64,000 bases of DNA from Somniosus microcephalus (Eukaryota), in the NCBI GenBank assembly GCA_052327205.1, contig CM126227.1, positions 28,272,001 through 28,336,000 of the forward strand, in the 5' to 3' direction. Made by a program: the position numbers and the translations under genes. Shown here one piece after another: positions 20,841 through 47,140 of this stretch. Each line of letters opens with the position of its first letter. The stretch's first letter is position 1. The notes under the pieces are model-generated. The model had not been told where the DNA came from. It did not search any database and saw only the letters and a program-made list of their open reading frames with translations.

Positions 20841-22517
20841 ATCTTCCTCAGGAAAGGTGAGTCCTGAAAGCGTCAGAACACTTCGAGCTCCGTCAGACTC
20901 CTCTGAAGATGCTCAAGCCATACATGCCAAGATGATGAGTCCTGGCACAGAAAGGGAAATGTCTCTGTACAAAAAGACAAAGCGAGCAATAACCAGCAGG
21001 AAGTACAGCGTCTCCAAGCATGAGGCCGAGGCAGATGTCACGACCCCCATCGAACTGATCAGCAGAGGCCCCGATGGACGCTTCATCATGGATCCCACAG
21101 AGATGGAGACATCGTTGAAGACGAGGAGGATTGAGGGCTTTCCTTTCGCAGAAGAGACGGATACCTATCCTGAGTTCCGGCAATCAGACGAGGAAAACAA
21201 TGAGACTCTAACTCCAACTGCCATTATGGGCTTGAAGTCTCAGCTTTCACCTCTTTCATCGAGTCAAGAGTCTTACTTACAGCCACCAGCATACAGCCCA
21301 TCGTTCCAGAAAACAGACGAAAGCATGGGAGGCTTAGATACCAGGCTACAGGCCACTGGTCAGACCAGGCGACCTGCTAAAGGTTACCCTCACAGCCAGT
21401 TTTATGGCTATCTCAGCAGTAGCTCTGCAGACCAAGATGGTCAGCCATTTTACATGCCAGATATCAGTCCCCTCAGTTCAGTGATGTCTTCACCTCTATT
21501 ACTTGCTGAAGGATCTTATGGTCATCCCACCCTCCCTGCGGATCATGGAGATACTGAAATACAGCATTTGGTCGCTTCCAGTAGCACTCTGCCTTTGACT
21601 CACACGCCAACCACTATGAGGTCTCCTGAACTGTGGAGAAGGAAGGAATTATCTATCAGCAGCATTGAAAGCTCTCCAGTTATGTTTTCACACCATCAAG
21701 ATACACCTGAGAGTACACTGCCAAAGGCTGGTCTTCCAAGGGGTGGCCCCCCTTCCTCACTCCAGGTCCCAGCACCCTACCATAGCGTGCTGCAACTGGA
21801 GGCACCAAAGAGTCGGACTGGCAAAACTCCCAGCAAAACTAAAGGATCTGTCTCTCTCTCTCAAAAACATCCACATCAACCTATGCAACAGACCAGTCAT
21901 GGGCAGCTAAAGCATACCAGCCATGGTATAAGTGCACCCGCATTGCCTTACACTGAATCAGCCAAACAGGCTGGTCCTAGTGGCACAAGCACATTCAGCC
22001 TGGACACCAGGTGGTACGAACCTAGACCCAGGCCCAGACCCAGCCCTAGACAAGGCAGAAGGACTGAGGCCAGTTTACACCAGGTGGTTCTACAGCCTTC
22101 CCGGCTCTCCCCTTTGAGTCAGAGTCCTATGAGTTCCCGTCACGCCTCCCCAGAGATTTCATCCCGCCCACGGCCTCGGCCTAGTGTCATGCAGCCCCCC
22201 CGAGGCATCTTTCCTGCAGGTATCTCTGTGGAGATGTCCGAAATTACCCTTCAGCCTCCTGCTGTCGTTAGCTTATCCAGAAGGTCCTCTCCGTCCTCCT
22301 CACCAGCACAAAGCGGCACTGCTGGCCAGGGCAGCAGACGAGGAAGCCCCAGTTATAGACCTCACATGACACTGACACCTTCTACAGGCAGCTACACAGG
22401 ATCCCCTCCTCCTGCAACAGAGCGCAGCGAGTTTTATAGTCAGATCCCTTCCCAAAGGAGGAGAGGTGAAGACATTCCTCCTTTTGAACACCCACCTTCA
22501 CACTTATCTACTTCAGG
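20841..22517 (+). CDS. IGSF9B: IGSF9B large cytoplasmic Ser/Pro-rich exon (SSSGKVSPESVRTLRAP...HLSTSG)
   Basis: CTCTCAG acceptor ends at 20840. Corresponds to ORF 20857-22521 with IGSF9B motifs TTPIELISRGPDGRF, RRIEGFPFAEETD and DTRWYEP. Donor GG|GTAGGT at 22518, phase 2. Confidence 0.97.
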
Positions 22518-22976
22518 GTAGGTATTTGAAAAAGAATGTTGAACCAGATCAGTTGGAAAGCCAATTTGATTTCTTCCATACAACTAAGTATTGTTTAGTT
22601 ATTGTGGAATTCCTGTGTTCCAAGATAGACACCTATATGCTATTAAGTGTACATAAGTTTTTTTTTTAAAGCTGTTTATCGTTAAGTTAGTATTTGGTTG
22701 CATTCAATTGAACAAAGCTTCTGGTGTCAGAAACTGCATCTAGTTCATCCACTTTTCAAATGGGGGATTAATACCATTCTGCATTGCTTTTTCAGAATTG
22801 TGTCCAAAACATTAATTTATATTATTATTATCATTATGGGGTTCAGCAGACAGGAAGTTTCAGTGCCACATATCCTTCCATTTCTGATGAACTACGTTCA
22901 TATAGACTCACAGGCAGAATCTCTGTCGTGTGAGCTATGAAAAATGAGAGCTGACGTTTGCACATCCTTATGAAAA

Positions 22977-23400
22977 GGTCAGCTTAGATCTGTTGGTGCC
23001 TTTTTCACCTCTGAGTCAGAAGCTCGTGGGTTCAAGACCCACTCCAGGACTTCAGCACATAAACTAGGCTGATGCTTGAGTGCAGAACTGAGGGAATTTG
23101 TCAGAGGTGCCATAGTTAGGATGAAACGTTAAACTTGGGGCACTCCATCTGTTTATTCTGGTTGAGGTGGCGGTTAAAGATCCAGTGGCACTATTCGAAG
23201 GGCTGAGTGTCCGTGAGGTGTCCTGGCCGACATTCACCCCTCAAAACATTTGTTCACAAAAAAACAGATTAACTGGTCATTCACTTCATCTCTGTGTACA
23301 AAATGGCTGCAGTGCTTGCCTACAAAACAACTGCCACTACAGTTGAAAGCAATGAATTGTACATGAACATGATAAGGTGCTACATAAATATAAGTCTTTC
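22977..23400 (+). mobile_element. Full-length degraded DeuSINE (SacSINE1-like)
   Basis: Head GAGTCAGAAG..GGTTCAAGACCC, central domain and L2-like tail AAGGTGCTACATAAATATAAGTC. Confidence 0.7.
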
Positions 23401-26400
23401 ATTCCGCTGAAGTGGGTGATTCTCACATTACAGGTATGGCACTTAGAAACTAGACGTGAGCGAAAATACATCGGTTCAAACATTCAAAATATTTCACAGT
23501 TGTCCTATTCCTCAGATGATATAATGGATGTTCCAGAGCACAGCTCTGGGGAAAAAAGGGCATAATGGTCCAACCCTAATCCCCCAGAGCCCAGTTAAAC
23601 GGCATGTAGTTGTTGAGACTAACCTTTCAACATTGCCTGCTTTTAGTTAGGGTGGAAGTATCCTTGAAACTCAGATGTTTGAAATTTATCCTCGGCAGTT
23701 TCCACAGGAAGCTCGTGGTTGCTGTTTGTCGCAGGATCCTGTTAAATATGTTGGCTTATTACATAGAGGATAAATAACAGCCAGTTTTATGAATGAGCGC
23801 TATTGGTGGCAGCCCCAGCCCCATATTGCCCAGGATTCCCCAACCCTTCATTTTGATGGACAGTAAATGATGGGCAGTGAGCAGGTTCGGCTCCTTGCCA
23901 ATAAGGCACATTCATAAAGTTGGTCCTTAATGTCGAGCTGGGGAGGGAAGGGGGCTTCCAAAAATAGACGCTTGAATGATGTCACGACTGCATAACATTC
24001 TAAATTTGGATAAGGATGCAACGCAATTGTAAATCATCAGAAGATTATTTGTTGTTGAACCTTTGCTCAAAAGCCACTTAAGCAACATATGTCAGGATTT
24101 GTTGGGGTTTTTTAATGGAAGAAATGGTACTTAAATGGTTATACAGACGATAACATTGTCAACTTGGAACAATGCCCAGTGGTTATATAGACAATAACAT
24201 TGCCTTGATATTGTAGTAGCAATTGCACGTGGCTCCCATGCAATTGCGTTTTCCCTCTATTATCACAAGTGATGGGTTACCATTGAAATTACTGTCAGTA
24301 TTTAGATAACAGTCTACTCACAAATGCTAATGATCCTAGAAATTACTGTCTGCCACATTAGTCTAAGAACGCCATATACACTTTATGACATTCCTCTGTC
24401 TGCTATTTTAATGGAGGTATTAATCCACTTGTTTTCAATGAGTTGGCACATCTATTACAACATTGGACATAGAATTCTCATGCATATGTGTTAATCATTC
24501 TTACACTAATATTGCAAATAGTCATTTCTAATCTATGATGATCGTAGCATACCTGAACCAAACCAAACCAAATCAATGTAAAATATGGTATGGGTGCTTG
24601 CTGGAGGCCAAATTATTCTGCTTTATGAATTTATTTTTATAAATCAAAGTGTATTTACAAGGATAATCAATCACAAAATTACATTCAAGAGCCAATGCAA
24701 TACAATAATACCTTTTCACAGGATAACTGGCAGTGAGCCACCGCAGTGACAAGCAGCGTGACTTTCCATTTAGAGTGAAGTATGCTGTATGTTCTTTAAC
24801 AAATCTTAAGATGATCTGAAATGTGTATTTTTATATTTATATTTTCTCATTAATTCTGTCCCCAATTCTAACATTGTCACTCAGAAGAGTTCAGAACATT
24901 CAGATCTGAGCTTTGAAGTTACTAAACTTCTAAAAATGCTGTCGGTGGCTTTGGTACCAAGTGGAGTGCTTGCCTTCCAGCCAGATGGTCCCATATTTCA
25001 TTGGGGTGCCAGTCATGCAAGCTCATCTGCCCCATTGAGAACAATTGTCAATTTCAGCCAAGCAATTCATCGTGAAGAGAGGGAAAGAAACGACATGATC
25101 ACAATTGCCTCACTGCACATACATCTCTTGGTCGTTGATTAGAAAGCACGATTGTCATAGTCTCATAAACTAAGAAGCTAGATAACACAAAAAAGATCTA
25201 GCAAAATAGAGGAGGAGAAGTGGGTGTTGGGATAGATAAAACCTGCCTTATTTGTCCATGTGCCAGAAAGAGAATCCTAGTCGCTGGAGTTTACACTTAT
25301 AAATTTAGTGGAGGAATTCATACTCACAGACAAGACATTTGGTGATGTGAAGGCTGCAAAAGACCTCACATTACAGTCACAGCTTAGTAGTAGGATGATC
25401 AGCCCTCAAATTCCTACCTCTGCATTATGACCTCTCGCTTTGATCCCTGAGCTGCACCATTACCTCAGGTCCTGCATTCCATAAACTTCACCCCTAATTT
25501 ACATTAACTTCCATTCGCTCAGCATTCCACAGACTTGCGCTGTCTTTGTGGTACCAGTGGCTGAGATATCCATGGCCTTCACTCATTACGTCTATGGTGG
25601 GCTTAAGACGCAACATAAGATGAGTACATCTAGAGGAGAGGTTAAAAAAAAACACTGCTTATATGGTTGTAAGACAGATGTAGCTACCAGAAGGTCAGAA
25701 CTACACAAAGAACAGATAACTGTCTTCATGACTCCAACTTCTACCAGCCACGGAGAGTCCTTGTGGGTCTGTGTTGATTTGGACATCTTCCAGAAAGTTG
25801 CTGCTGCAGTTTCCTGAAGAAGATGTTTGTTTGCCACAAAATGGTGTCTTTAACATAACAGATTCCTTCATACTACCTTTCTAACCAGTGCTCCTGACAG
25901 ATGGGATAAAAAATAGAGCTGCAAAACGGGGCACTGTATGTGTCCTGTAGTACCTTATATTAGGATGATTTGGTTCACAGTTACCTATTCCTAGCTCTGA
26001 TATGATTCAGTATTTATATGGGGATATATATTGTTTTGGTTTTAGAAGTCCAGAAGTTTCTTGAAATTGGAAACTGCCCATCCTACATATCAGGCGATGG
26101 CTCTCTGATCCTGCATTAAAGCAGAGATATTCCAAACTGCTGTTTGCAGCAGGACCATTCTCAGCCTGACTGGAATTTCAAGTCTATTTTTAGGGAAATG
26201 CACATGGAAATGGGATGGGTTGGGCTGGGACAGCATATCCTCGTGTGTTGACTGATTCAAATGCATGAGAAGAAAAGGAAATGAACAGGGGACTATGAAG
26301 ATTATCTAAGTGGACAGAGTAAATATTCTGTTAAATACTCACGGCATATAGATTTTGTGCCAAGATTTCTTCTTTCCATATCAAGTTTTTCATCAGCTGA

Positions 26401-27587
26401 GAGGGCTTCAGCTTCTGATATCTAATCAGAGCTAATCAAGGTCAACCTGTTCCTTCCACGCTGCTAATCACAAAACATTACAATTCATTTATCCCAACAT
26501 AATTTTTAAAATATTATCTCAAATCTACACCTTCGGTTCTCAGGGTGAGTCAATGGACTAATTCTTTCCCTAAGACTCCTTTATACTGTACGGTATATTG
26601 TATTGTAATCTATAAAATGGCCTTGAATGTAATTTTGGAAGATTATCAGCTGTTTGTTTCTTTATTAATTATTGCTGCTAAAATTCTTTTACGATGCATA
26701 ATGACATTTTAGGGATGAGCAAACTACCCAGGGTTCAAATAATGTACTACTCAGGCTGATCCCCACCATAGAACATAAGGTAGATCCAAACTGGCAACAT
26801 TACTGCTGCACCAATGGTATATTCACACTTTGTGGCTCAGCAACTTGCCCCATTTTATTAGAAATGTGAGTCAGACCTTTGACACCCAGTCAAATTTGTA
26901 CTATCTCCAGTTTCTGGCCCAGTTTTTTCCTCATCCCAGGAATGTTTATTGATCTCTAATGTATTTGCACCTTCTAAAGTACCACCCATTCACCATTGTA
27001 CATGCATATATATTTTCCATATTGTCTATTTTTAAAATGGTGGAGTTCACCTTAAGTGTTTTTTTTTCATCTCGGGTAACAATTAATATAATTAAGCACT
27101 TCGGTTTGCAGGCTTGATGCAAAAAATAATTTGGAAAACTGAATATTTCTGTTAAAGTGACTAATTTATCCTTTTTTTCCCCCCTGGTGGATATCTGTCT
27201 TCACTGACCCTCCTGTAGCTGAGAGCTATTAGTAAAGGGGAAAAACTCATTAATCTTTCTTCAGTGTTATAGAAAGTATGCCTACCCAAATACCTCTGGA
27301 TATGTTTTTCATAATATATATGATTTAATTATGGTTGTGCACCATTAATTCAGCCTGTTCCACTGGCCTCTGAGAGTTCAAGTTCCAGGTTCAGGTACGG
27401 TACAGTGACAGGAATGATAGTCAGCCTATTGAAGTGCTGCTTCAAAAAATAGGGCACCAGGCTGCAAGTGGGTGGCAATGCTCGTCAGTAATATAATCCA
27501 CAGGCCTGCTTTGAAAAGAAAATGGAGGCTCTAGAAAATTAGGAGAACCCCCTCTTCTGTTCTTCATAATTTTTGTTTCTAAATAAT

Positions 27588-27733
27588 AGGGAACTGGATA
27601 AATACTTGAAGGAGAAAAACATTGCAGGGATATGGGGAAAGAGCGGGGGTGTGGGATTAACTGGATTGCTCTTCGAAAGAGCTGGTGCAGACTCGATGGG
27701 CCGAATGGCCTCCTTCTGTGCTGTACTATTCTA
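27588..27733 (+). mobile_element. CR1 3' end fragment
   Basis: GGGCCGAATGGCCTCCTTCTGTGCTGTA tail; shorter relative at ~32672-32753. Confidence 0.75.
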
Positions 27734-28917
27734 GGATCCCAGGTTAAGTTGGCAGCTTGTGGTAGAATTACTGTGTTAGGAATTCCACCCAAAAGCTGTC
27801 TTGTCTAAAGCAATTTAAATCTAGTATTGAGTGAGGGAAGTTGCAATTCTTTAGTGACTGATGGAGTTCATGGGAAAATGATTTTTTATCAGTCTCAGGC
27901 TAGTTTCAGGAACCCAGAAGGCCCATTCCCTTGCTTTAACAAGTTTGTGTTTTACTGTGGTCCCGGATTTAAGTTGTGGAGAATAAAAAAGCTACAAGCT
28001 GAACTAGAGAGCATCTCTTGCAGTGTCTGATCAATGCCCAGCATTCCACTGGTGATGTAAAACAAGGCTTATGCTGTGCAATAATTGGAAATTTACTATG
28101 AAGATACAAACTTTCATTTGGAAAAATACCAAATATTTAAAGGACAAGTGGAAAGGCTTTATTCTTCCATATCTGAAACACATAACCCATCATCATGCTT
28201 GAGGCTCAACTTGGAAATCCACATAAGTAGAGCTTGTATTTGCCAGATATGGAGTGCGTACTCCTTTCCTCAGGGACACTGGCATCTTACGTAGGCCAAG
28301 AGCCAAGGTTTAGCGACCCCCTTCTCTGAGTGTATGTGGGACTGCTGCTGAAATTTGGCTAAAACTGTGTAGCTTACCAACATAAGCCACTGGTAAGCTT
28401 CCCATTCCTGGTTCTGCCAAGCTTCATTAGAGCATCGGCTTGCAGAGTTAAATGTCGCTGAGTGGGAAGAGTACCGCCCCTATATAACTTTCCATGTTCC
28501 ATCACTAAGCTAAAGTGCCTGGTGAGTCAGCAGCTCCCTGGAGTATTGCTGACCTTTGTGCTGCAGGTATAAGATGACCAAGTCTACTCTGGAAGATCGA
28601 CTCGGTTCCAATGTACTATCACAGGCGTGAAATTTTAAAGGCAATCCCACCATAAAGAGACCCTGCTTACCTCCCCCTCAAATATTATTTCATAGTCAAA
28701 TGTAGTTTGTGCATGCATTTTCATTTAGCCTTCAGTTGGTATGTAGCTCGGTAATCTTTGTTTTCAATACTGAGGTTCCCCCACCCCCACCCCTCCCCCT
28801 TATTTGTCAACTGAAAAGGCAGCATTTTTAATTGCTGGCAGGATATTATTTGATGTATTCGGCTAGGTGCATCAGTATCCAAGGAAAGTTGGCACTTGCT
28901 AATCAGCAATGGAGATA

Positions 28918-29230
28918 TTTTTCGAGCTACTAGACAGAGTATGGCGTGGTACTACGAACACACAAACAATGGCAGACAGGTAAAGACCCTCTGGTCCATG
29001 CAGCCTGTCCCACCCGATGGTGATACTTTGTGTATCACAATATATACACTCCCCACCCAAAACCATGGGATCTGGGAGAGGTGAAAAAACAGATAAAAGC
29101 CCAATTTGGGGGGGGGGGGGGTGGAAATCTGGGAAATTCCTCTCCGACCCATCTAGGCGATCAAAACCAGTCCAGGACATCACTCTGGCTCTGAATTCCT
29201 TGCAGTACCTACCTTTTGTAAGAGTTAATA
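28918..29230 (-). mobile_element. CR1-type LINE 3' fragment (different subfamily)
   Basis: Minus strand ends in GGACCAGAGGGTCTTTACCTGTCTGCCATTGTTTGTGTGTTCGTA, a CR1-like hairpin and tail. Confidence 0.55.
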
Positions 29231-31401
29231 TCCACCCTTGCCAGAAACAGGCCCAGCTCTCACTTGAAGAGAGAGAGCCACAGATGTGCTCCATCTCTTC
29301 AGTGAGGATTGACAAACATCAGCAGGGAAAGCCTTCCCCTACGAGAGCCCATATTCTGTCTCCTTATCATAGAATGGAACTGACGGATGATGTGCATTCG
29401 GATTTATTATTCTAGATGTTAAATAAAGAACTGGTAATGATCTCACAGATCAAACCGTGCCATCATCCAGAACAATTTGTGTATATTTCTTATCCACAAA
29501 AACATTTACCTTGACCTTTAGCTGTGATAGATCAGACATGGCAACATTATTTTGGATTCAAACTGATTTGCTTCCTTTGCTTGCTGCTATAGCAAAAGAA
29601 ACTAGATTTTCAATCACCGTCATAAAGAACGGAGCGGAATGCTGCCCCTACACTGCATTGAATTGTAGTCATATGTGTAGTGGGCTTGTCGGCGTTCCCA
29701 GAACAGCTGCTTGGTGCCAAGTGTGAAGCCTGCTGTTGGTGAAATTGACGGCATGGTGTGGTCTGGGGCCTGCTCCAGGGGTGTGAACAATTTGAGTCAT
29801 TATTACGTCCCTCCTTTCCATGAGTATTGGCTGTGTGCACACCTCCTACATTACCGGTTATGATAACCGGCATGAATCAGTAAGCAAGAAATGTACAACT
29901 GTATACTGAGACAGTCACACATTTCTCTTTAATTGTAAGGCATAGCTGAAATAAATAAATAAACCCGTCACCGGCAAAGGTGCTGCAGTCTCTATTTTTA
30001 ATCAGACATTGCTATATCCTACAAGACATCTGAGAGGAGACCAAATCACTTCTGCCAATCACCAATCCAGACAGGTTGGACCAACAGTACAGTCAGAAAG
30101 TTTACCTGTAACACCAGGAGCCAGAACATTCAGCACAGGTTCTCAGGGTTCCTCCCGGATAGTTTGGGGAGATTTGTATTTTATAGAAAGCCAATCAGGA
30201 ATATTTGGGGCTTGAGTTGGCTTTCAGACGGTAATACCAGACCTCTGAGACCCATTATGCCATGTTCACAGGTAACCTACAGAAACAGTAATTGCTTACC
30301 AGCCTTATGGGCATATTAATCTTAAATAGACAGGTTGGTAGCTGCCTTACACTCTCAATTTACTGGGGTAAATATTGGAGTACTACTAATGTCAACTTCA
30401 CTTGCCCTGAACACTGATATAACCACTAGGTTTTTATCTTCAGAAATAGGTCCCATAAGCAGCTGTTGTTTGTTCTCAGCAGGGAGGATGTTATGCCAGC
30501 TGTGTTGATTCTTTACATTTGGGGATGATACTTAGATTTTTTTTCCCATCTGCTACATACGTGACTACTGGTCTGCATGTCTGCACCAGCCCTTACCGTT
30601 ATGTGGATGCATCATTTCAGATGTTAAAACTCCAGGGGCGTGAACTTAAATATGGAAATCCAAACGTTAGCATCAAGGAATTAAAAAATGCCTGGGGTAG
30701 AAGTCCTGAGTTATGCCCACAAATTCTAAAATATGTTCTTATAAGTCCATGCTAATAATCTTTTTGCTCTGGATGGCATGTTGTTCAGAAATGGCTGGAA
30801 TAATTTCGATTCAGTCCTGGGTTGAATTCAAACACAAGGCCAAGAGAGATGGAGCGACGGTCTCCTGTCTCTTACACCTGTTAAAAGCTGTAAGCGAGGT
30901 AAATTTCGGCAGTCTCTTGTTCATTTCTTAGTGGAATCGAACCCAAAGGACAAAACTCCGCTTAACATTTTCTTATTGACGCTGATCTCCTTACCCGGGT
31001 AATGCACAAGCATAGACAGTATGAAGCATGAAAACCTCACACTAGTGCAGTTGGTGGAAAGGAAAGGGTTACAGAAGACTATGGAATAACAGCGTTTTCA
31101 GACCAATGTAGGAAACAATGTGTATTGCTTCTGTGCCCACTTGACCTAGGATTGCTTTGTTTACTCCTAATAAGTGCAAAGAATTATTTACAATTGCGTT
31201 GATGAGCAGATACTTATTATGAACAGTTTCACAAGTGTGAATTCATTAGGGAGCCTAGCTGAAGAAGGAAAGCATGTAAATGAAAAGGAAATTAAAAAGT
31301 ACTCTTGGAACTTTATCAGAGGCCTTTGAAAAGCAAACAAACTATGTATTGTATTGCATATAATTCTGGAGGGACTACAGGAGGATACTGTACCTTTAGA
31401 T

Positions 31402-31539
31402 CTGCTGTGCGCAAATTGGTTGCCGCGTTTCCCACATTACAACAGTGACTACACTTCAAAAGTACTTCATTGGCTGTAATGTGCTTTGAGACGTCTGGTG
31501 GTCGTGAAAGGCGCTATATAAATGCAAGTCTTTCTTTTT
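31402..31539 (+). mobile_element. SacSINE1-like 3' portion
   Basis: Same tail as 5514-5624. Confidence 0.7.
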
Positions 31540-32105
31540 GTGACTGCACATACTGAGGCTGTTGATATACTCTTCTCTCCTTTAGATAAGAAGGAAATGT
31601 CAGCCAAAATGCTTTGCTTTATTATTGCTGATTTGAATTTGTCCTCTGCCACAATATGAACTCCAGGACTCGTAGCTCAGGTCTCCACTCGACTGGATAC
31701 AATCGATCAGGGTGTGATAATATGAGTTTGAAGGTTGATATTAATCAATCTTGAAACGTTATAACCCAAGGCTGCCTGAAGTTCTCAATCACCGCATAAG
31801 TATTCCATTTTCCCCTTTTCCCAGTGAACTCCTTTTCGAGTGAGTTGCAGGTAAAGCTATCGTGTCTTGTCATTGTGCTTGAAAACTCCGTATTTATTTT
31901 CTTAAAAATGACCTGAAAGTGTCTTTTCATTTTGTCCAAGATCCTGTTCCATTTCCATTGATGTCAGTTGCAGTGTATGCAGAACCCACTGACATTATTG
32001 AGCATTCTGCTCGTGTACCTGAATGTCTTCATTCGTTTAATGAATATTCTTCAAATTAAATGGATCATTCAGAGTCTTAACTGCTTTGTTTTTGATTAAT
32101 CTCAG

Positions 32106-32151
32106 CTATCACGGCAGTGTTGTTGTGACCAGGTCCTCAACACCTCAATAG
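32106..32151 (+). CDS. IGSF9B: Candidate alternative (poison or terminal) exon of IGSF9B, (G)YHGSVVVTRSSTPQ*
   Basis: Branch-like CTTAAC at ~32076, T-rich tract and CTCAG acceptor. In phase 2 it continues the frame to TAG (32149-32151), immediately followed by donor GTAAGG. Confidence 0.6.
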
Positions 32152-34600
32152 GTAAGGGTCGAATCCATGTCTGAAAGGGGGGGGGCAGCAGGTGGGGCTT
32201 TTAAACTCATTTTTCCTTTAAAGGGGAATACAATACTTGGAATGTTCTTTACCTGCCATCATTTTCCATTTTTGTGTTCAATTTCCTTCCTTTTTTTTGG
32301 TTTCCCATGTGATTTCTCCTTAATTTCCAATTGATGAACTCTCTGCCCTATTCAGTTGGATGGACGTGGAATGTGAGTCCGCAGCTTCTTCGCAACCTGA
32401 ACGTTGTTGCTGTAGGCTCCCCCTGCTCAAGGTGGGCCTCAAATTGGTCGGCATTCTGTTTCATTTTTGTTCCCCCTTCCCTGTTTAGCCACTCCACCTA
32501 TCCTTGTGGTCAGACATTATATGAACCAGGGCACATCAAGAACAAATAAAAGCCACCGTTGGTATGGTTGGCCGATTGGAGGGTCAGGAACCACCACACA
32601 GGAAATCAATGCCTTTAACCATTGTCCTATTGGACTACTACATTTTCCATTTCTTTTAAACTTTGTGACAGTGGAGTGGGACGAATTGGAGAGCTCTTTC
32701 AAAGAGCCGGCACAGACACGATGAACCGAGTGGCTTCCTTCTGTGCTGTATGCTTTGATTGTGTGCCAAAGCTGGCAGCTAAATTTAACCATGAATAAAA
32801 TTTGAAAAGACAGTAATATGTTCAAGAAAACGCAGTGCAAAATCTACCATCAATCAGTTGCCAAGAAAAATGGAAATATTTCCCCAATCACAAACATCTA
32901 TTTCATTTTTTAAACCATCCTGCCATTTAACATTATACTATGCATAATGTGTTCAAATAAGACAGTTCTTTGTTCTGCGGTTCAACGTGATAGATTTTTA
33001 GTGAATATGTCATAATGAAAATGCACATACTTTAAAAATGGGATCTACCTATAAGTGTAAATTGCACAACATAAACAATGCTGTATTTTTGATGCGATAT
33101 TTGCACAATTCAGTCTTCAGTTCCTGATGGCATGGAGGGCTGGCAGCAATTTCCCAGGGCTGTTATGCACTGTCACTATCGTACCCAATTAAGTGCCAAG
33201 CCAATGGTCCAAAAACACTTTGCTGTGTTTGTCTTTCTGAAATGAAATATTTCAGATGGCAACAATAAACATCAATATGTTTTCCTCTATTCATATTGTT
33301 GCTTCGAAACGCCTCCTCTTTCATGACATATCTCACTTTTGATCCACTTGGATTTATCGTCTTCTGTTCTCGCGAAACAGAGGGAAAAAAATCGCTTGAG
33401 AAAGAAAACTCTGGCGCTGTTGGAAGTTCAAGTATTCCCCTTTAAAGTTACATCTGCTAAAGCAATGCATGCTTCCGCTAGTTAAACGTTGTTGCATTTG
33501 TCTTCTGAGTGGCTCAGTGTGATTGTTCCAAAGCATTTTCCCTAATCCTGCCATTCCTCCCCCTCTGTCAGCATGGTGAAGCCCATTGTAGATGAATCTT
33601 TATGTCGTTAGACACATACAAGTGACGCTCTGTTGCACAGCAGTGTAATCATTTACTAACTGTCATTAATTTCGCATTGCAGCAAATTGTTAGGGACTGT
33701 CAAAAGAAATTCCGTGGAATTATTTTGAACCGATGAGGTGATATTGCATAAACTAATAAAAGCAATATAAGCTATCTGTGATTGATGGGTCTGTTGAAAG
33801 TAAAAAGGTTTTGTCTTTATGAATCATGTAATCTACCTTATGGAAGTGGCATAGATTTCAAATAAGCAAAGAATGGCACCTGAAAGCATTCTTCAAATCT
33901 AATTGGTAATATAGCCCACACCACAGTATATTACGTTACCTTTCTAGTCCATGTTATGCGAGAGCCATTTTTCAATCCTGCCCAAAGACTGTACACTCCT
34001 GTGAAAGCAAGAGCAACCCGTCCTTCAGATTAACTAACAAATCACCCACATTAAGTAATGAAAGAGACTGGACAGCACCAACTCTTGGAACACTTCTGCT
34101 ATAGGTTTTGAATCAAGGCCGAACAAATGGACCATCTCCTCTCTGGTAGCTATGACAGGAGTCAAAATAATGCTGTATATGACATACAGAAATGTTTTTG
34201 AAAGTGGTTCTGTAAACTTGCCTCCTACAGTGAACCTGGCTTGTTTATAGCACGGGATTTTTTTTTTTAAACTGTGCATGTGAAACAATTGATACCTGCA
34301 TGATTTGTGTTCAGTATATTTCATTTGCTCAATTTTACATCTTTACTACAGGAGCTATGTACAGGCTGGTAAATGTGTCTGAAAGTTATCTAAAAAGAAA
34401 GGGTTAAATATGAATAAATTTACACTTGCCATTCTCACCCTTGGAAGATATCACAAGAACACCAAGTGCTGGTTGGTTGAAATCTGGAATACCTGACACC
34501 ACTAACCTATCAACTCCTTCCACATCTTCCTCCAGATTTGACTTCCTTATGTCATCAAGATCCCCGACAGAAATTAATGAGTGAACTGTGAATACAGTAT

Positions 34601-34844
34601 TACAAAAAGAAAATACTGCAGATGCTGGAAATCTGAAATAACAGCAGAAAATGCTGGAGGAGCTCAGCAGGTCAGGCAGCATCTGTGAAGAGAGAAACAG
34701 AGTTAACGTTTCAGGTCGATGACCTTTCGTCAGAGTTCAAATGAGTTCTGACGAAAGGTAATCGACCTGAAACGTTAACTCTGTTTCTCTCTTCACAGAT
34801 GCTGCCTGACCTGCTGAGCTCCTCCAGCATTTTCTGTTTTTATT
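34601..34844. mobile_element. Fold-back Penelope-type insertion with two hammerhead cores
   Basis: ~90-bp near-perfect inverted arms around a short spacer. 14-bp TSD TGTGAATACAGTAT at 34587-34600 and 34845-34858. Confidence 0.85.
34743..34781 (+). ncRNA. Minimal type-I hammerhead ribozyme motif, sense to the IGSF9B pre-mRNA
   Basis: GAGUU-CUGACGA-A-AGGU-aaucg-ACCU-GAAA-CG-UU-AACUC, with 5-bp stem I and 4-bp stem II. Confidence 0.6.
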
Positions 34845-35227
34845 TGTGAATACAGTATGTTTGATCACAAACTATACTGTAAAATAAATGATAGTCTAAA
34901 TTTTATTGACACTTTTTAATTTAGTAGCTTTAAAATACCATAAGTGTATGATTGATATTCCAGATCACATTGTCAGTAACCCTGATGCTATGTCATTAAC
35001 CTGCCTCTCTCAAACAGATCATTTTTCTACTCCTTTTTTCCAATGGTTTTCTCCTCTCCTGGAAACATTTACCTCTTGGTGAGGAACAGTTCCACAGGTG
35101 CCGGTCACTATTCAGTGTGTTGGCAAAGTGGCCTTTCTTCACCTATAAGCCGAGCAGTGAATGTCAGCAGGCTTCTTGATTATGGGGCATTGCAGCCAAA
35201 TCTGATCTGTCTTCAATATCCACAGAT

Positions 35228-37373
35228 GGGGGTCGATTTTGGCCGCCTTTGCCCTGCATTAACCGGGCGGTAACAGCCTCAAAATGGGGGTTGTAGACTC
35301 ACCCTCCTGTGACACCAGCAAGGAAGCTGGCTCAATTTTGAACGGGGCCTACTGATGGGTTTCCAAAGCGCCTGCCTATTTCAACAACAACAACTTGTAT
35401 TTATATAGCGCCTTTAACATAGTAAAGCATCCCAAGGCACTGCACAGGAGTATTTTAAGACAAAAAATTTGACACCAAGCCACATAAGGATAAATTAGGG
35501 CAGGTGATTAAAAGCTTGGTCAAAGAGATAGGATTTAAGGAGCGTCTTAAAGGAGGAAAGAGAGGCAGAGAGATTTAGACAGGGAATTCCAGAGCTTAAG
35601 GCCGAGGCAACAGAAGGCACGGCCATCAAAGGTTGAGCGATTATAATCAAGGATGCTCAAGAGGGCAGAATTAGAGGAGCGCAGATATCTCGGGGGATTG
35701 TGGAGCTGAAGGAGATTACAGAGATAGGAAGGGGCGAGGCCATGGAGGGATTTGAAAACAAGGATGAAAATTTAAGCACTGCTTAACCAGGAACCAGTGT
35801 AGGTCAGCGAGCACAGGGGAGATGGGCGAACGGGACTTTCAGGCGAAAGGTCCCTTTTAATATGGAAATCGGGCTCCTAAGCCTATCTCATGGAGCCAGT
35901 GCTGCTCAGTAGCTCCTGGTGTATAGCCACCTTCTGTAGGCTGCACCCTCGAGATCTTCATCTCGGCCTTCTGCAGCAGGGCTAGGATGCAAGCTCTCCC
36001 TCCGACGAGCAGCTTCCTGAGCCGCCTTATGTCCGTACACTTGTGCACTAGTGCTGCGTAAGCCTCCGTGTGCAGACCCGGCTAGCCTAGCCTCTAAACC
36101 ACACAGGGTGCCAGTCTCTGAGCTGACACTTGCTACGGTAAGGTCGAGTGGCAGTGTGTCTTCATCATAGCTATGGCCCGGTTCCAGCTCGTTGACCACT
36201 GGAGGCTCTACATGTGCTACACCTGAAAGGGAAGAGAGGAACAAGGGTTAACATTTGGTGTCGAGGGTAAGCTGAGACAGGTGAGTGGCTGCTGAAAGCA
36301 GCTGCAGAGCCTGTGAGCGTGAGGTTTCAGTGAGAAGGGAAAGAGGACAAGATGGCCAAGAACTCTGCAGGATGCATTCTCCAGTCTTGCCACCCCCAAC
36401 GCCCCTGACGCGACCCATCCCCACGATCTCTACGATCTCTTCTTCGACTAGGGGAAAGGTGTGAATAGAGGTGCTCATGTTCTTGCCTGCTCCCTATTAA
36501 TGCTTGCGAGCTTCTACTGCAAGAAAGAAGGGAGAATGTTCACTGTAGACTAGTGAGATGCTTTGAGGATATGCAGATCAATGTAAAATAGTGGTGTTGG
36601 TGTGTGAAGGGTGGCAGAGGAGTGAGGAAGTGAAGGCAGTAACAGTGAAGAGAGTAGTAGGTGTAGAGAGTGGTATTCAGAGCAGAAGGAGTGAAGTGCA
36701 TTGCAGTGATTGGAGGAGAGTACTGGTAATCGGGGAGGAAAGGGTTGTGAGTGCTGGGGCTAAAGCTAATGCAGTGTTAAGCAGAGAGTAATGACAGATA
36801 AGAGTTAGGAGTCTTACCTTCGCAGCCTTTGTCAGGTCATTAAACTTTTTCTTGCATTGCAGCCAGGTTCACGGGGGTATGCTGCTGGCACTGATGCACA
36901 CTGCCACCTCTACCCACTACTACCAAGCAGCTTATCCCAAGACCTTTACCGCCTGGTGAGACGAGGACATCTCTCCTCCTACCCACCATCTCCACCAACA
37001 CTTCCATCAACATCTCCAGTGCAGCGTCCGAAAACTGGGGGGGCCTTCCATCTTCTCGTCCACCTGCCATTTCGGCAAGTTGAATTGAATATGTTTCCTG
37101 CAGTCGCAGTACACCCCCCTTTTAAGAGGTGCAGGATGCCTTTAAATGGCGTCAGAGATGCCTGATTTCCCGCCCCTCCCCACATTAGGCGAGCCACCCA
37201 TCAAAGTGTTAGTCACGCTGGCAGCCCACCTTTTTTATGATACTGAGGAGCCCCCATCAATATGCTTCATAGATGCGCTCATGTGAGTGATGCACGCTGG
37301 CTGCGCAGTGCCAATTCTGGGCTTGAAAACAAGGCCCAGGCACATACCTACCCCGTGTCATTTATTCTAGCTC
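35228..37373 (-). mobile_element. Internally deleted Harbinger element retaining a decayed Myb/SANT gene, interrupted by L2
   Basis: Minus strand PPQFSDAALEMLMEV..RRRDVL and TWLQCKKKFNDLTK with donor AAG|GTAAG at ~36815. GGGGGTCGATTTT terminus at ~35228. Right end approximate. Confidence 0.7.
35382..35838 (-). mobile_element. L2-type LINE 3' fragment
   Basis: Paralogue of 5754-6293 with a (CAA)n tail. Confidence 0.8.
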
Positions 37374-39101
37374 CATAAATCAGTGCCTTGATTATATATT
37401 ATACATGACATAGTATAAAACAGTGTACCTTCTGACTCACCATGAGCAATGCCTTAAATGTTGCATCTAGTGCTCACGTTGTCCTTCAGACTTCAGACGT
37501 CATTGTCCTATGTGTAAATTTCTATGTCAAACAAGAGAAAGTATAAACAGAAAGTCAGCCGCACTTCTAATTGAGCTGAGTATCTGCCCAGTCCATTCAG
37601 CCTCTCTTTGCAAGGTCTTGTGGCCTTGAAGGACCACCAATTTCCCATAGCTACACCTCAGCAACAGAATAGTAAAACCCATTGACGTAAGAAAACTACT
37701 AGGCACTTGGTCTAAGCATTAAACAAAGCTTTAATCAACTGTTTTACAACATGGAGGTCTAGTTGTGTCCTTCACTAGTTCCTGTTAAGAATGTCCTGTG
37801 CAAGCTGGGCCTGTGCCTGAGTATTTATACTCTCCCTGGACAGTGCCACCCGCAGGCCGCTCAGTATTATTTCATAAGTCTTTCTTTCATGAATGACTGA
37901 TTCATGTCACCCATGTTACATGGTATTGTGTTCCTGTTCTTCTAAAACAGCACATCCTCCAGCCTACCATGGGCAACGCTACAGGAAATCCACTCATCGG
38001 TACAAAATAAAAATCATGGGAAATCTGTTAGTCTGTATAAAAAAAATCATAGGAAATTTGCTAGCCTGAAATTTTAAAAAATCATGGTGAGATCTAGAGT
38101 AGCTTTGGACAGTTAACATCACTTTCCCTTTAAGTCTAATTTTTACCTCATTTTATTTTAATTCCTCGTCCCCATTTTGAAGTTATTTCTCCCCCTTCAT
38201 CATTCCCCAATTAAAAAGGTTGGGTAGGGGACCTGTTCCTGGACCCTGAAAATGCTGCTCTCTAATAAGTCACTAGGAATGATAAAAGTGGAGTGCTTTC
38301 ACTTTTGCCAGGGATATAGTTATTTGCCATTTTGATGTACACTCCCATGTGTGTGTTAGTGTACATAAACAGGTCTACAATAAAGCCATTTTATGCTCAG
38401 CAGGTTACAAAATGGACCAGTTTGGGCCAGAGTTAAATTGTGTGGAGCAGGCTGTGGAGAATTAGTTCATGGAGAAGTCACTGGGTTGGCATGACAGTTT
38501 AAACTTTGCCTTGACAGGGTTGTGCTGGAGGATTAAGAGCAGGACATGGAACTACCACGCACATGAAATAGCAGGTGCATTCCTCAGGCTTATCTCGCGT
38601 AACAGAGTAGCCTGGGAGCATCCTTGTATTACCTCTGAATGGTAACGCATGACTCCATCACTGCAAATATGGAAAATGATTTCTTTCCCCCCGCCGCCCC
38701 CCGTCACCGACATCCCTCACTTTGATGAGCACACACAAGTAGGTGAAAAGAGTGTTTTGGCTAAATTTTGCCCTGAAATGCTGTCTGTGAAAGAAACTTG
38801 GCCAGTATGTCTACCTTTGTTACCTTTGCTTTGAGTCATTTTGAGAGGACAGATATAATCATGGGCTTTAAGAATTAACCATCAAATAACTCCATAAACC
38901 TACAAACCGAGGTTTAAAAAGTGAGATGCTTGACTCAAGGTCGCCACTTCATTATTTGTCTGAACCTCTGAATGGAGCTTTTGGGCTGTTTGACCATTCT
39001 TCCTGACCCTATCCAAAAGTTATTAGTATTACAGCACCACTGTGTAAATTAAAATAAATGATCAGTTAATTGCAGTAGGATTACCAAAAGTTAGAAACAA
39101 A

Positions 39102-39777
39102 AGGGGAAAAATTCAGTATCGCCCCGTTTGGGGCGCCATTATCAACTGTGCGCAAAATTTAGCGCCTGGTGCTAATTATCGCCTCCGACAGCAAACTTGG
39201 CTTTTATCGCCCCTGGAGGTGATTGGAGCGCTAAATCAGGCGCTTCACACCTGTCTTAAGGCACAAAGGCCGAGGAGCGAGGCGCTACCTCAGAGCGCTG
39301 GTGGAGCAAGGAAGGGCAAATCAAAATGAACCTGCAAAGTGCTGCTCAGTACCCAAAACTCCTTCACACAGCGTTGAATCTCTCCAGAAGTCTCTCTCTC
39401 TCTCTCTGACTGCGTGGTGCAAAAATGTCACCGACAAAAAAAGGCAGGAAGTGGTCGCCTTTAAATAACGCTCCCCCAGTCCCTTCCTGACAGCAAAACG
39501 CTCCCCTCAACCTGTCGTTGCTAGCGGCAGGCGGTAAGGCAGGGGGCGCCACTCAATATCCGGTCCGGGGCGCTACCGGGGCGTTGCGCACTCGAATGAT
39601 GTCACGATCTGCCAGCGCAGGAGATCATGGCGGTAGTGTTTAGCGCCGCTGCAAAATGTCTAGTTAATTTCGCGAGCGACGAAAACATCGCCGCGCCCGG
39701 GCGCAAGTTGCTTTGCGCCCCAATTGGCGCCCTCTTAAGGCGCTAACGGGAGACGCAAACAACTGAATTTTTCCCCC
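39102..39777. mobile_element. Harbinger-like MITE
   Basis: TIRs GGGGAAAAATTCAG / CTGAATTTTTCCCC; colinear with 9408-10257 but with an internal deletion. Confidence 0.85.
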
Positions 39778-41307
39778 ATAATGCAGTTGTGCCTCTGTCA
39801 CTGATGACTTTTTACTTGGATAAATAAATACGAAATCTAAAAAGAACCATGAAAAATACAATTAGTTTGTGTAGCGGCAAGAGGGATGGTGACCTTATCT
39901 GCTCTGCAAGGTGAAGGTTGTTGGTGCTAGGAAATGGAACTCTTCCAATTTTTCAAACCTATACAAGCATCAAGCAACCCACATCAAAGATTGCATGGTC
40001 CAGATCCAGAACAGAACTGTCTCATCTCTGCCTTAAACTCAACTCAGAAGAGCATCTGTTGCACCAGAGCCATTTTTAACATTTCTTTGTATCTCTCTGC
40101 GAGACTACCAGTTTAATGCTAAATTATGGTCAGTTTGGTGCTGTTGGGTCATATTACACCAAGAACATGTTTGAGACCACTTAAGTGCCCTTCCAGCCAT
40201 AAATATACAGCAACATAAAATAGGAGTCACCAAAGGAGACTTCCACTGTACATTGGGATCATACACATGCTTTTATACTCGTATATTCATATTTATACAT
40301 TACACTTTAGCGAGGAGCTGTTCACCTCATTAGTCTTGATCAGATTCAAAACTAGGTCCTGTGGGTGTAAAGGCAATGTGCTGACTACCAACACCACCAG
40401 ATAAATCCCCCTAAACGCTTTCCTTAAATAATAAATCACATACATTTTTCTGGACATGATTTTCTCATATTGAAACATTTCTGTTTCACTTGGTTGTAGA
40501 CTTGATTTCTTCTTCAGTGACCAAAAATAGATATGACCTCTGAAGGTTTCAGTAACATCACAACTGGCCTATTTGCAGCAGGCATATGAAATGTACAATT
40601 TAAAATAATGGTCTCTGAGGGGGAGGTTTCCACTGGCTATATATAGAGAGAGCTTTAATGTGTCTTTTGACAGTTTGTTATAAATTGCAAACAACAGACA
40701 TCTTCCTATAATATTTTCTATGCAAAATATACATTTTATTAAGTGTGCTGCACAGAAAATATTTAACATAAATGTATTTTACTTCTGTGTTGTATAAGTG
40801 CTCTATGTCCTGAATATATAAATATTTTGAATACACATATGTTACATCTCTACTATTGTACAATGTAGATGGACTCTTTACACCCTAATTATTTTGATTA
40901 TTAATATTAGATCTGTATTTCATGATGCCTATTTTGATATGTTTAGAAATTACATACTAGTTTGAGGGAGGTCCACTCAATCTTAATAAAATAGATACAA
41001 CTGGATTGCTGACAGTGTATAACCAATATTAAGTCATATGGAATCAGTAAGGTTCAATTTGCAAAGTGGCATCCATGATAAATGTTACCCAAGGGTGTTG
41101 TGCCTCATGTTGCTTTCTTAACTAATGTGTACAGCAGTGAGGAATTGCCACTGGAGGCTGATGCTATAGTAATTTAACTCCTTTCAGAATGCATTGAATT
41201 GCTTAACGCCAGTTGTTGAAGTTCCCAACTTTGCCTAGGATTATCAGGCTTATAAAGAAGGAGATATTAGCATCTGGGATGAAGCACTTCTGGGACTGAG
41301 CAAGGTC

Positions 41308-41491
41308 GAGGCAATTTTAACCTAATCCGCCCATGGGGAAACTGACGGGATTGGGTACAATGCTGGTTTTACACCCCGTCCTATTTTACGCTCACTTGAA
41401 AATGGAGAGTAATATTGGGCAGGGTGCAAAACGGGTGTTCCACCCAATCCCGCGGGTTTTCCCTCCTGGCGAATTAGGTTAAAATTACCCC
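41308..41491. mobile_element. Short palindromic MITE (relatives at ~43585-43790, ~61632-61720 and ~63789-63927)
   Basis: GGCAATTTTAACCTAATCCGCC / GGCGAATTAGGTTAAAATTACCCC. Confidence 0.75.
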
Positions 41492-43799
41492 TAAAAGTCT
41501 GGACTAAAGGCAATTAGAGCAACTTGTTTTGAATTTTCTTTCCCTCCCCCTCATTTCCCCCTCGTCCCCTCACATCCTGAAGGCGATGACTCACAATGGA
41601 GTTGGCCTCCACACTTGTTCTCTGGCACCTCATCTAAGTGGCCATCCTTCTAACCTAACCTGTCAGCATGTGAGAATCATAGCTGAGCCTGATCTCATCC
41701 TCGCCTGTTGTACTTTCCAACAGTTCTTACTGTGTAACAATCGGGAGTAGTTTGTTTCTTTTTCTCCATGACCCGGGGAACTGAGGCTAATTGTAGCATA
41801 CCTGCCGCCACAGCAACTGAGATGCTAACTCAGTGCAAACCAGGGACCAAACCTGACATCTTTCTGGTCTGTATGTCTCCACACATTGACATCCAAAACA
41901 ATTTGATTTCAGAATACATAATCATGATGCTGGTTCCGCCACACTACAATAATTGACTCCATTTCTGCTGCTAAAGTAGAACTATAATGAGGTAGGAATA
42001 AAGAATGGCGTAATAATAAAGGAGCCCCTAAAAAAAAGCAGTATTTTGAAAGCTGAAGTTTCTCATGCTAAAGCAATGTGTTGAAACATTTTTAATTGCC
42101 AAATTTATGTTTTTCTCATGTTTAATTAAAAAAAAGTCATAAATACAATTGATTGTCATGACGTCATCACTGGAAAAGTCCATTAAGCAGGAGATTGGCC
42201 GTATTTATCCAGGATTTATAACCTATGTTAGATTGTTAACGAGATTCATTTCAATTGTAAAAGTTTGAGCAAAGTAATATGGATTAACTTTGAGGCTGCC
42301 CCAATATATATGACCTAGACTGAAATGTCAGCAAAGACCTCATGAGTCCTACGATGAAACTGTCCCGTTAAATCTACCAATCTCTCAATGTTTGAGCAAA
42401 GGTCCCATCAAGAGCAACTGGTGAGAGCATGGGCTAGAAATTTATCTGGCCCACATTCGGGCCCAGAATTGAGGCTGTGCAGACAGCGCGGGCCCCAACC
42501 TGGAGGCCCAAGACCAGTCCGAAATTGGGCCTCGAGCCTCATTTCAATAACTTAGGCAAGCTGCCAGCACCTGTTATGCCCCCACGGGCAGCTTGCCCAT
42601 TTGAAGAAGTTAATATCGGGCCACTCGCCTCGCACACAGTGAAGGTAATGCTTCACAAACTGTGTATTGTAAATGATCTCCATTCACTTACCATTTATTG
42701 CTTCACAATTTTTTTTTCTTCCTCTTTAGGTCCTTCCACAGCACTCAGCATTCCCTGCTGAGAGGCAGGGCTGGCAAACTGCATCCAGGTATCTGCCCAT
42801 GTGGCTCTGTAACTGCCCACTAGGTGAGGTGCTCACGATTGGCTCGTGGTGACACCCTACCTATAAAGAAGCACTTCAGTGGTGCCCCTCTCCCCCCCAC
42901 CACCCCTCACCCAATAACAGCTCAACCAAGTTTGTGAGCTTGTGTAAAAAATTGTGACAGTAAACCCACATCCAACTACTCAATGACACAGTTTGTTGGT
43001 ACATCAATCTCCTAATCTGAGGGGCCTTGATCATTTAGCCTTGTTATGGATGTCCATATCGGCTAAACAATTTCTCCTAATGAGCTGTCCAACCGGCATA
43101 TCAATACCATGAAGTCGACAGGTTATCTGGGGAAGCTTGGCAAAATGTACCATAAATTTCAAAGTCATCTTAGGAGTCTGCATGGTGTTCCAATAAAGAT
43201 GTCGGAAGATTGTAAAAAATAAAATTAAGATATCCATTCCCAGGGCTCATTTTCTCGTAGTCTGATAAAAATATATGTAGAAAAAAATGGGAACTTAACG
43301 TAACAGTCAAAAATCTAAACTTAGTTCTTCCTGTTGAACCGCCAATGCTTCCACTGAGGCCTGTTCACATTTATTTTGGCATTCCCAGCAGAACACTCCT
43401 GGAAGTATTAGCTAAGGAATGCATCTGAAGCAAAGAAACACATTTTCTTTTATGCAATCTTTTAAAATTCAGTCTGACCTTCTGACTAAGAAAGGCGACC
43501 AAGAATTTGTTCTAATAATCAATGTTTTCATTATCTGAAGTCAGCGCTAACAGTGTGGAGATTATTGTAGAGACATAATGTAGAGGGGGAAATTTTAATG
43601 TAACTCACCGATCAGGTAACCTACGGGATCGAGTACACGCTACCCAATGTTACTCTCCATTGATTTTGATTCTATTCTATATCCAACACAAAATGAGGCC
43701 ATGGTCCGCGGGGGCCTCTTCACCGCTGGAACTGTTGGCCGGCCAGCGGGTCACGACGATTTGTCACCCAAAAGTCAAAATCGACCCCAGTTTCTCTCC

Positions 43800-44080
43800 A
43801 TAACTGGAGGCCATAAATTTAAGATAGTCACTACTAAATCCAATAGGGAATTCAGGAGACACTTCTTTACCCAGAGAGTGGTGAGAATGTGGAGTAGTTG
43901 AGGCGACTAGCATAGATGCATTTAAGGAAAAGCTAGATAAGTGCATGATGGAGAAAGGAATAGAAAGATATGCTGATAGGGTTAGATGAAGTAGGGTGAG
44001 AGGAGGCTTGTGTGGAGCATAAAAACACCGGCATGGACCAGTTGGACCGATTGGCCTGTTTCTGTGCTGTAAATTCTATG
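43800..44080 (+). mobile_element. CR1 3' fragment
   Basis: 'TGGHKFKI..REFRRHFFTQRVVRMW' motif and CR1 tail. Confidence 0.8.
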
Positions 44081-44243
44081 CAATTCCCTGTAATGGGAGT
44101 TACTCAGTGTTAAAACTCATGAGCAGGAGCCCAAAAGCCTGCCACTCCATGGTATCACACAACTGTGTGTGAAGTTAATCCCACCATAAGTAATTCCGCA
44201 CTATATCATTAATTATAAATTTAGATGATGACATCCTTTATAG

Positions 44244-44400
44244 TAACTCCCTCCCTAGCAGCACTGTGGGAGTACCTTCACCTCACAGACTGCAGTGGTT
44301 CAAGAAGTCAGTTCACCACCACCTTGTCAAGGGCAATTAGGAATGGGCAATAAATGCTGGCTTTGCCAGCGACGCCCATATCCCATGAACAAATTAAAAA
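44244..44400 (+). mobile_element. Non-LTR retrotransposon 3' end (CR1/L2 group)
   Basis: AACTCCCTCCCTA..GCACTGTGGG..GGGCAATAAATGCTGG, followed by an A-rich tail. Confidence 0.6.
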
Positions 44401-45880
44401 AAACACTCTAGTTGAGCAGGAAACTTAGCGAACACAAAGGAAATATATTTAATAAATTTACTGGTTAATCTTCCATGGTGCAGCAGACAGGAAGTCAAGA
44501 CCAAGCAGAGTGTTCAGGTCAAGTAGGGCTAAAGGGCGTGGAGATAACTGGACCAAGGACCAAGGCAGGAGCAAGAGAGGGGGAGGAGGCAAATGGGAGG
44601 GGGAGGAGGGAAGGGGAATGAAGCGGGCAAAAAACTGCTCAGTGAGAGAAGGTACAGGTGGCCAAAATGATAGTTAGTGGAAAAGGTACGGGTGGGTTAT
44701 CACAAAATGATAGTACCAGGGATTCATATCAACACGAATTATGGTCAGTGGGGAGGGGGAAGTCACGGGGGGTTGTTAGATCTCCAAAATGATGCTCTGT
44801 GTTGTGGGGGGAAGAGTAAGCATTGGGTCATCATATGAGTGCCCCACAGGGGAATTGGAATCCTTCTGTGTTATCCAGTAGTTTCATAGATGAACTGCAA
44901 AGTTGGCTGACAAGTTAATATTATTGCGGCAGCTTTGGGTACAGAACTAAAGTTAGCGTGATGGCAGTTTATCATTGTTAATGCCGGTCTCAGCACCACT
45001 TACAGTCACTGCATTAATTGCAGGTCATTTAAAATGAACAAAATAAGGGGCAGATGAAATGGAATGTTGTAACCCAGCTACCATTTTTATATATATTTAA
45101 TTGATAAATGCCAAATAGAGACTGAAACCTTTTCTGAGTTTAGTGTTTGTAACAACAATGATATGAAATAGTTCCAGGTAAGACGTAGTCTAGTTTGGTG
45201 GTAATGTTGGGGTTTCCCAACACTGTTGCTTCCATTCCATTCCCTGTGAGCCAGACTCCTCGCCTGTCAACCTGTTGCTTTAAATGACGTCACTGTTCCC
45301 TGCATTTAATTTTTAGTCTTAACAGAATTGTACCGTTCTGACATCTGTGAAGGACTGAAACTACCAGAGCTCAACTTCATTAAAGTTTTTGATCAATTTC
45401 CACTGCTTTCTTTGGCCCAGCCCCATACCAACGACTTCAAATATACATAATCAGTCGATGACTTGTCATGTCTCTTGAGTTGTAGGATCTGGGTTTACGG
45501 CTTTTTTTTGCTACATGATGAGTTACCTGATCTCAGCGAGAGGAAAGGAAAGAGAAAATAAAGAAAAAAATGCACCCGAGGGGTTCCTAGCATCTGACTC
45601 AAGAGCAGCAAGGGCAGAGGGGTAACAGCAGGACATCAACCTAGCCTCTCATTTGAGCGAATGGTTTGTGGCGTAGGAATACTTTTAAAACAAAAAAAGA
45701 GGCAAAAGAATATTGGGATGTAAAGAAAGTACATAACTGGGGAACAGAGTTTCCATGAAAGAAACCATTGCGTTGATTCATAGCATATAACCAGCAGTGC
45801 CCCATCGTTAGTCTGTTTCAACAGTTTTTATCATGTCGAGTTCGCCAAAGAATGTTTGGAATGAAAGAATTTTTAAAAAT

Positions 45881-47018: not shown

Positions 47019-47140
47019 GAGGCCTCCAGATACACATGGTGCGGCTGCTGTACCTGAGAGTTTCGAAGTACTGAGATATCAGCGTGTGCGAAAGCCCAAG
47101 AAGGCAACCCTGCTCACTTCAAAGGCACGGCGAAAGAACA
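47019..47140 (+). CDS. IGSF9B: IGSF9B penultimate exon (GRPPDTHGAAAVPESFEVLRYQRVRKPKKATLLTSKARRKN)
   Basis: Long pyrimidine tract plus CACAG acceptor; donor A|GTGAGT at 47141; 122 nt, phase 2 to 1. Resembles human 'NAAAPERLEALKYQRIKKPKK'. Confidence 0.93.

Follow-up and report, generated by a model that had tools for sequence, protein, structure and literature searches.

This locus raises the question of whether a 46-nt segment lying within an intron of the IGSF9B gene of Somniosus microcephalus, with a stop codon placed directly at a splice donor, is used as an exon and, if so, whether its use removes the message or changes the protein. We analysed a 64,000-nt stretch of DNA (hereafter the window; positions 28,272,001 to 28,336,000 of contig CM126227.1, assembly GCA_052327205.1). 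The gene was identified through its exon 18, which is 95% identical to that of a shark 'protein turtle homolog B' (IGSF9B), and the full shark protein maps exon by exon onto the window and the region upstream of it; the number 18 follows from 13 matched upstream pieces (exons 2-14) and exons 15-17, together with a presumed exon 1. The features concerned are:

20841-22517, + strand: exon 18, the large IGSF9B coding exon, with a phase-2 donor at its end
32076-32105, + strand: acceptor region of the cassette, from the sequence (acceptor use from the X1 contig; putative branch point)
32106-32151, + strand: 46-nt cassette exon (translation, X1 contig, protein records)
32152-32174, + strand: GTAAGG donor and apparently conserved start of the intron (donor use in the X1 contig; gar models)
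47019-47140, + strand: next exon, 122 nt, with the KPKK segment (protein match, loose end of the X1 contig)
55374-55600, + strand: coding part of the last exon, with the KKKR segment and the ATLL end (protein match)

Exon 18 ends in phase 2 at 22517 and is followed by the GT of its donor at 22518. Upstream of the cassette there is a branch-like CTTAAC hexamer (32076-32081), a T-rich tract (32085-32094) and the acceptor AG (32104-32105); the cassette itself completes a Gly codon, adds 14 codons and ends with TAG as its last three bases (32149-32151), and the acceptor of the next exon ends at 47018. The splice sites, the length, the terminal stop and the spliced translation are all as the initial annotation had described them, and so is the loss of the basic segments and of the ATLL end that it expected from termination in this exon: inclusion ends the frame at 32151 and swaps the last 115 residues for 14, and the KPKK, KKKR and ATLL segments, which map to the exons at 47019 and 55374, are lost. 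The C-terminal Gln of the 14-residue tail is not a canonical PDZ ligand, and the AG of the donor consensus partly explains a stop positioned exactly at a donor. Upon inclusion the exon 47019-47140 turns into 3' UTR, and by the gene structure the stop lies 122 nt before the junction at 47140. As 46 is not a multiple of 3, the shifted frame would, even without the TAG, meet a stop once 12 codons of the next exon had been read.

One explanation of such a segment would be splicing noise acting on a pseudo-exon that arose by chance; in its favour, the intron is about as rich in splice-like motifs as shuffled sequence. Under a consensus rule chosen after the exon was seen, the intron holds 44 pseudo-exons versus 38.5 in 100 shuffles, so the splice motifs alone are not unusual and are no evidence by themselves; pseudo-exons with their sole in-frame stop as the last codon numbered two, against a shuffle mean of 0.12 (same post hoc rule).

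Splicing was sought in sequencing data. A search with exon 18 gave 21 sequencing runs, none recorded as RNA and 15 guessed to be RNA, and contigs of five of the 21 were compared with the window. One of the five, X1, yielded a contig of 1001 nt (depth 15) with both junctions named in the initial annotation, 22517-32106 and 32151-47019: its letters 1-272 lie on 22245-22516 and its letters 273-320 on 32105-32152 (48 letters without mismatch), and the loose ends of the piece over the cassette correspond to the end of exon 18 and the start of the exon at 47019. The X1 rows were taken as one contig from their equal length, equal depth and adjoining coordinates; its last 560 letters are unplaced, and the 47140 junction is not among the placed parts. 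X1 represents a relative (0.61 of sampled words), not necessarily the same species, and no run is evidently from the window's own assembly. In X2, X3, X11 and X7 the cassette had no coverage, which is not evidence of absence; small X2 and X3 depths at the cassette in a wide, repeat-swamped comparison were not reproduced in a narrower one and were dropped. Because both junctions occur on one contig, the exon is a cassette joined on both sides, to exon 18 and to the exon at 47019, rather than chiefly a last exon. A direct jump from 32151 to the last exon would spare the message from nonsense-mediated decay (NMD); it was rejected, since the X1 contig goes to 47019 instead.

In X1 the contig follows the included form. 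A gar protein model (P0235) independently joins the cassette, in another frame, to the gar copy of the exon at 47019. Skipping is represented by the long tail in 176 of 267 protein records, the short tail being present in 32, and both forms occur within the same species (e.g., P0149 and P0127). A further 21 of the 267 end at the exon-18 donor, the read-through of which gives an immediate stop in translation. Contigs of X3 and X7 also read through this donor (window 22518-24730, + strand) into that stop, and neither AATAAA nor ATTAAA occurs in 22518-24500; this read-through could be a retained intron, pre-mRNA or a long terminal exon.

Neural microexons of the SRRM4 type are short, frame-preserving and neuron-specific, and have an upstream UGC element. 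The cassette does not resemble them: it is 46 nt long, shifts the frame and bears a stop, and inclusion of its very likely human counterpart is listed for many non-neural tissues; the nearest TGC lies at -24. A motif scan from 200 nt upstream to 300 nt downstream of the cassette gave no GCATG and no ACTAAY, and YCAY occurs at +105, +108 and +115, as plain occurrences.

From the IGSF9B protein records gathered, the window translations and one unrelated record were excluded; of the remaining 372, which sample clusters and are not a census, 42 terminate in the 14-residue tail, always at identical length. They come from sharks (4), bichir, sturgeon, gar, teleosts, axolotl, lizards, a snake, an owl and mammals including macaque and capuchin; in the four shark records the tail is identical to that of the window, and one further model (P0064) uses part of the cassette in frame. 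None of the sampled records of coelacanth, lungfish, caecilian and ray has the tail, which is not proof of absence, and a search with the macaque tail region gave no further short-tail representatives among the 10 matches listed (3 checked in full). The peptide conservation about which the initial annotation had asked is thus borne out, with the same tail, length and stop across jawed vertebrates, and judging from these records the exon is conserved from sharks to mammals.

Conservation of the nucleotides can be judged from contigs and protein models rather than from orthologous intron DNA of other vertebrates. Two gar models in different frames fix 45 of the 46 bases, seven of which differ from the window, and seven of nine four-fold sites are unchanged (small numbers from one species, deduced from two protein models). 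The gar model P0233 reads through the cassette donor and matches 32106-32171; it fixes 15 of the first 23 intron bases (32152-32174), two of them different. Conservation therefore looks to be at the nucleotide level and to run into the intron. At the protein level, tail identity to ray-finned fishes is 11-13 of 14 compared with 56-65% for exon 18 (P 0.004-0.015 in three of nine comparisons), whereas identity to amniotes is 8/14, no higher than in exon 18, and further tetrapods vary freely at three tail positions. The distinct tail substitutions are negative in BLOSUM62 in 10 of 11 cases and nearly all one base apart; their mean of -1.18 compares with -0.59 for matched exon-18 residues (P = 0.053) and -0.75 for random single-base changes, a weak test in which the tail changes are not distinguishable from neutral. 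These radical substitutions might lean, weakly, to a constraint on the RNA, and the fixed length of the tail leans toward a constraint on the peptide.

The exon very likely has an orthologue in the human gene. Supplementary Data File 1 of Margasyuk et al. 2024 (PMC11632617) lists an IGSF9B exon 18b (chr11_133918257_133918302_-), likewise a 46-nt cassette, as cryptic and of the poison class, and as present in VastDB and CHESS. Its entries are a phastCons value of 721, an inclusion/retention ratio of 0.762, NA for CHX_dPSI, a highest GTEx inclusion of 0.953 (poly(A)+ steady state), occurrence in the brain and some twenty other tissues, and a largest tumour change of -0.338. In that catalogue the poison class is given by the 50-nt rule and the exon is defined by both flanking junctions; cryptic exons are those absent from the GENCODE and RefSeq human annotation, with a cross-species check to mouse and chicken only, and the accessible main text does not name the IGSF9B exon. 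The orthology follows from the same gene, the same length, the same place after exon 18 and the corresponding 14-residue tails of primate models, rather than from a human DNA alignment. With an exon, length and stop common to jawed vertebrates, a spliced contig, and the phastCons value and high inclusion in human (PMC11632617), splicing noise is refuted by conservation and junctions, and we regard it as extremely improbable.

The initial annotation had called the exon hidden, which is correct for the human reference annotation used in PMC11632617 but not for many other species, whose predicted proteins encode the tail: short 'protein turtle homolog B' models (for example XP_072449276.1, XP_043532700.1, XP_067827125.1, XP_070931957.1) end in the cassette peptide, although such records are automatic models and silent on NMD or function. 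The cassette is already catalogued, as one table row, and is not a new discovery; what the present analysis adds is its evolutionary depth to the level of sharks, the pair of junctions from a cartilaginous fish, and two neighbouring exons that also change the tail. A literature search found this catalogue row and no study of the cassette, and 'poison exon' or 'cassette exon' combined with Igsf9b gave no match. No cassette entry was found in the accessible supplements of PMC13078869 (a gene-count row only), PMC11188260, PMC9882217, PMC13187750 and PMC10123112, the tables of which may use other identifiers, nor anything on it in the available parts of PMC10511046, PMC13240960 and PMC3141077; the main text of bioRxiv 10.1101/2025.06.26.661736 does not mention IGSF9. 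An IGSF9B skipping event in PMC13042764 is given there without coordinates and could not be tied to the cassette, and PMC3678166 mentions, without detail in the part available, two shorter IgSF9b database variants.

The two further tail-changing exons are:

42730-42788, + strand: second frameshifting cassette, 59 nt, in the same intron (suggested by ray models P0137-P0139; not in reads)
53196-53262, + strand: alternative 67-nt exon with a third C-terminus and an ATKV end (shark, bichir, sturgeon, gar and tarpon models)

If the first is included, translation would end 66 nt ahead of the 47140 junction. There is also a possible second donor for it at 42824, and the exon extended to there would likewise end in an in-frame TAG. 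Weak matches of a skate model (P0136) at 46436-46487 (+ strand) suggest another short cassette just upstream of the exon at 47019. The 67-nt exon has its stop 8 nt before a candidate GT donor, and is therefore predicted to escape NMD, and it ends in a class-I-type PDZ motif; the ATKV-type tail is found in eight of the 267 records (shark, bichir, sturgeon, gar, tarpon), with none among the tetrapod records of this set.

NMD is signalled by a stop that lies 50 nt or more above the last junction (PMC11632617, section 16). By the gene structure the cassette stop is 122 nt away from the junction at 47140, so the rule predicts decay. We consider it somewhat likely that the cassette acts as a poison exon sending the message to NMD. 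This reading draws on the two junctions on one contig and the continuation of gar P0235 into the exon at 47019, on the position of the stop and a frameshift that would stop in the next exon even without the TAG, on the poison class of human 18b, the apparent nucleotide-level conservation into the intron, the radical residue changes and the Gln end, and on the contrast with 53196-53262, whose late stop and PDZ-type end are the layout expected of a protein-changing exon. The initial annotation had proposed either a poison exon or an alternative last exon; the cassette or poison branch gains from both junctions, the conserved peptide and the class of 18b, whereas the last-exon branch loses because the donor is used. 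In the proposed mechanism, the 122-nt exon spliced on to a further exon would leave an exon-junction complex about 100 nt behind the stop, which would elicit UPF1-dependent decay, and the inclusion rate would set the amount of full-length, PDZ-tailed IgSF9b. Messages escaping decay would encode a receptor with 14 residues in place of the last 115, unable to bind S-SCAM/MAGI. Selection probably acts mainly to preserve the RNA element, which serves exon definition and the regulation of splicing and guarantees a stop, rather than the peptide.

Against a poison exon stands the fact that all 42 records keep the same length and stop position, when a frameshift of any kind would be enough to poison the message. 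The one Heptranchias record among those listed is the short form. The human inclusion of 0.953, the contig path in X1 and the Heptranchias record would be unusual for an efficiently degraded isoform; by arithmetic, a true inclusion of 99% combined with five-fold decay gives 0.95. The included message might instead largely escape decay and act as a protein-isoform switch, yielding a stable receptor that keeps its ectodomain, lacks the basic segments and the PDZ ligand, and is uncoupled from S-SCAM/neuroligin-2, which we hold to be a plausible but less probable reading. The C-terminal PDZ motif of IgSF9b couples it to neuroligin-2 via S-SCAM at inhibitory synapses, and the last 75 residues hold the motif that binds MAGI-1, S-SCAM binding via PDZ4-5 (PMC3678166). 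Besides this motif and the high human inclusion (PMC11632617), the switch is consistent with the invariant 14-residue length, with 13 of the 14 tail residues shared by shark and several ray-finned fishes, where exon 18 reaches 56-63%, and with the use of other tails by IGSF9B. It is at odds with a stop so far above a further junction, with the radical residue changes and with an amniote tail no better conserved than exon 18, and the short protein is predicted only. With inclusion reaching so high a level, either decay or a tail-less receptor may be the outcome, decay being the likelier; the two are not mutually exclusive, and the PDZ-tailed form would be shut off either way.

An alternative last exon, in which the donor is ignored and polyadenylation in the downstream intron or after the exon at 47019 lets the message avoid NMD, appears unlikely. 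AATAAA occurs at 32545, 32794 and 47462, gar P0233 reads through the donor, the inclusion/retention ratio of human 18b is 0.762 (PMC11632617), and messages have been described to escape through polyadenylation downstream of poison exons (PMC13187750). However, the only contig with the cassette uses its donor and no contig continues past 32152, the donor is strong and conserved, the human exon is defined by both junctions, and IGSF9B was not found in the available supplement of PMC13187750. A minor read-through form of the cassette donor is possible.

To return to the poison exon, the cassette resembles conserved neuronal poison exons (PMC13078869, PMC11632617) in being a cassette, in having a stop beyond the 50-nt rule and in its apparent conservation into the intron; SR-protein poison exons are another example of the class (PMC13228269). 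It differs from the neuronal class in that its NMD response is predicted only and its inclusion is unusually high, and its stop lies near the end of a long ORF, so that an escape product would be nearly full length and could function. An exon that takes away either the PDZ motif or the entire message, that jawed vertebrates have retained and that attains 95% inclusion in human tissue would largely govern the amount of scaffold-coupled receptor per cell, and a splice-switching oligonucleotide blocking it would be a way to raise the full-length protein. With the class well known and the exon catalogued, the surprise is modest. More tentatively still, the exon might be a switch of the same age as the jawed vertebrates: although it formally triggers NMD, it would be present in up to 95% of messages, escape decay and make the PDZ-less receptor the main form in some tissues, as one of three conserved tails (ATLL, ATKV-type, none) that set the choice of scaffold for this adhesion molecule of inhibitory synapses; this we think rather doubtful.

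As to the surroundings, the cassette had been placed in a TE-poor stretch; this description is overstated and fits only about 31540-32568, some 1 kb of single-copy sequence bounded by high-copy repeats at 31403-31539 and about 32570-32725. Very high-copy SINE-like repeats (31403-31539, 27600-27740 and 32570-32725, + strand) are abundant in the compared sequencing runs. Contigs from four related organisms cover the intron upstream of the cassette (30200-32003, + strand), with raw identities of roughly 88-98%. The open reading frames at 11006-11740 and 13544-14308 (+ strand) and 17078-17875 (- strand) are presumably fragments of LINE (CR1-like) endonuclease/reverse transcriptase, and a tandem repeat at 52103-52548 consists of 12.1 copies of a 37-nt unit with 96% matches.
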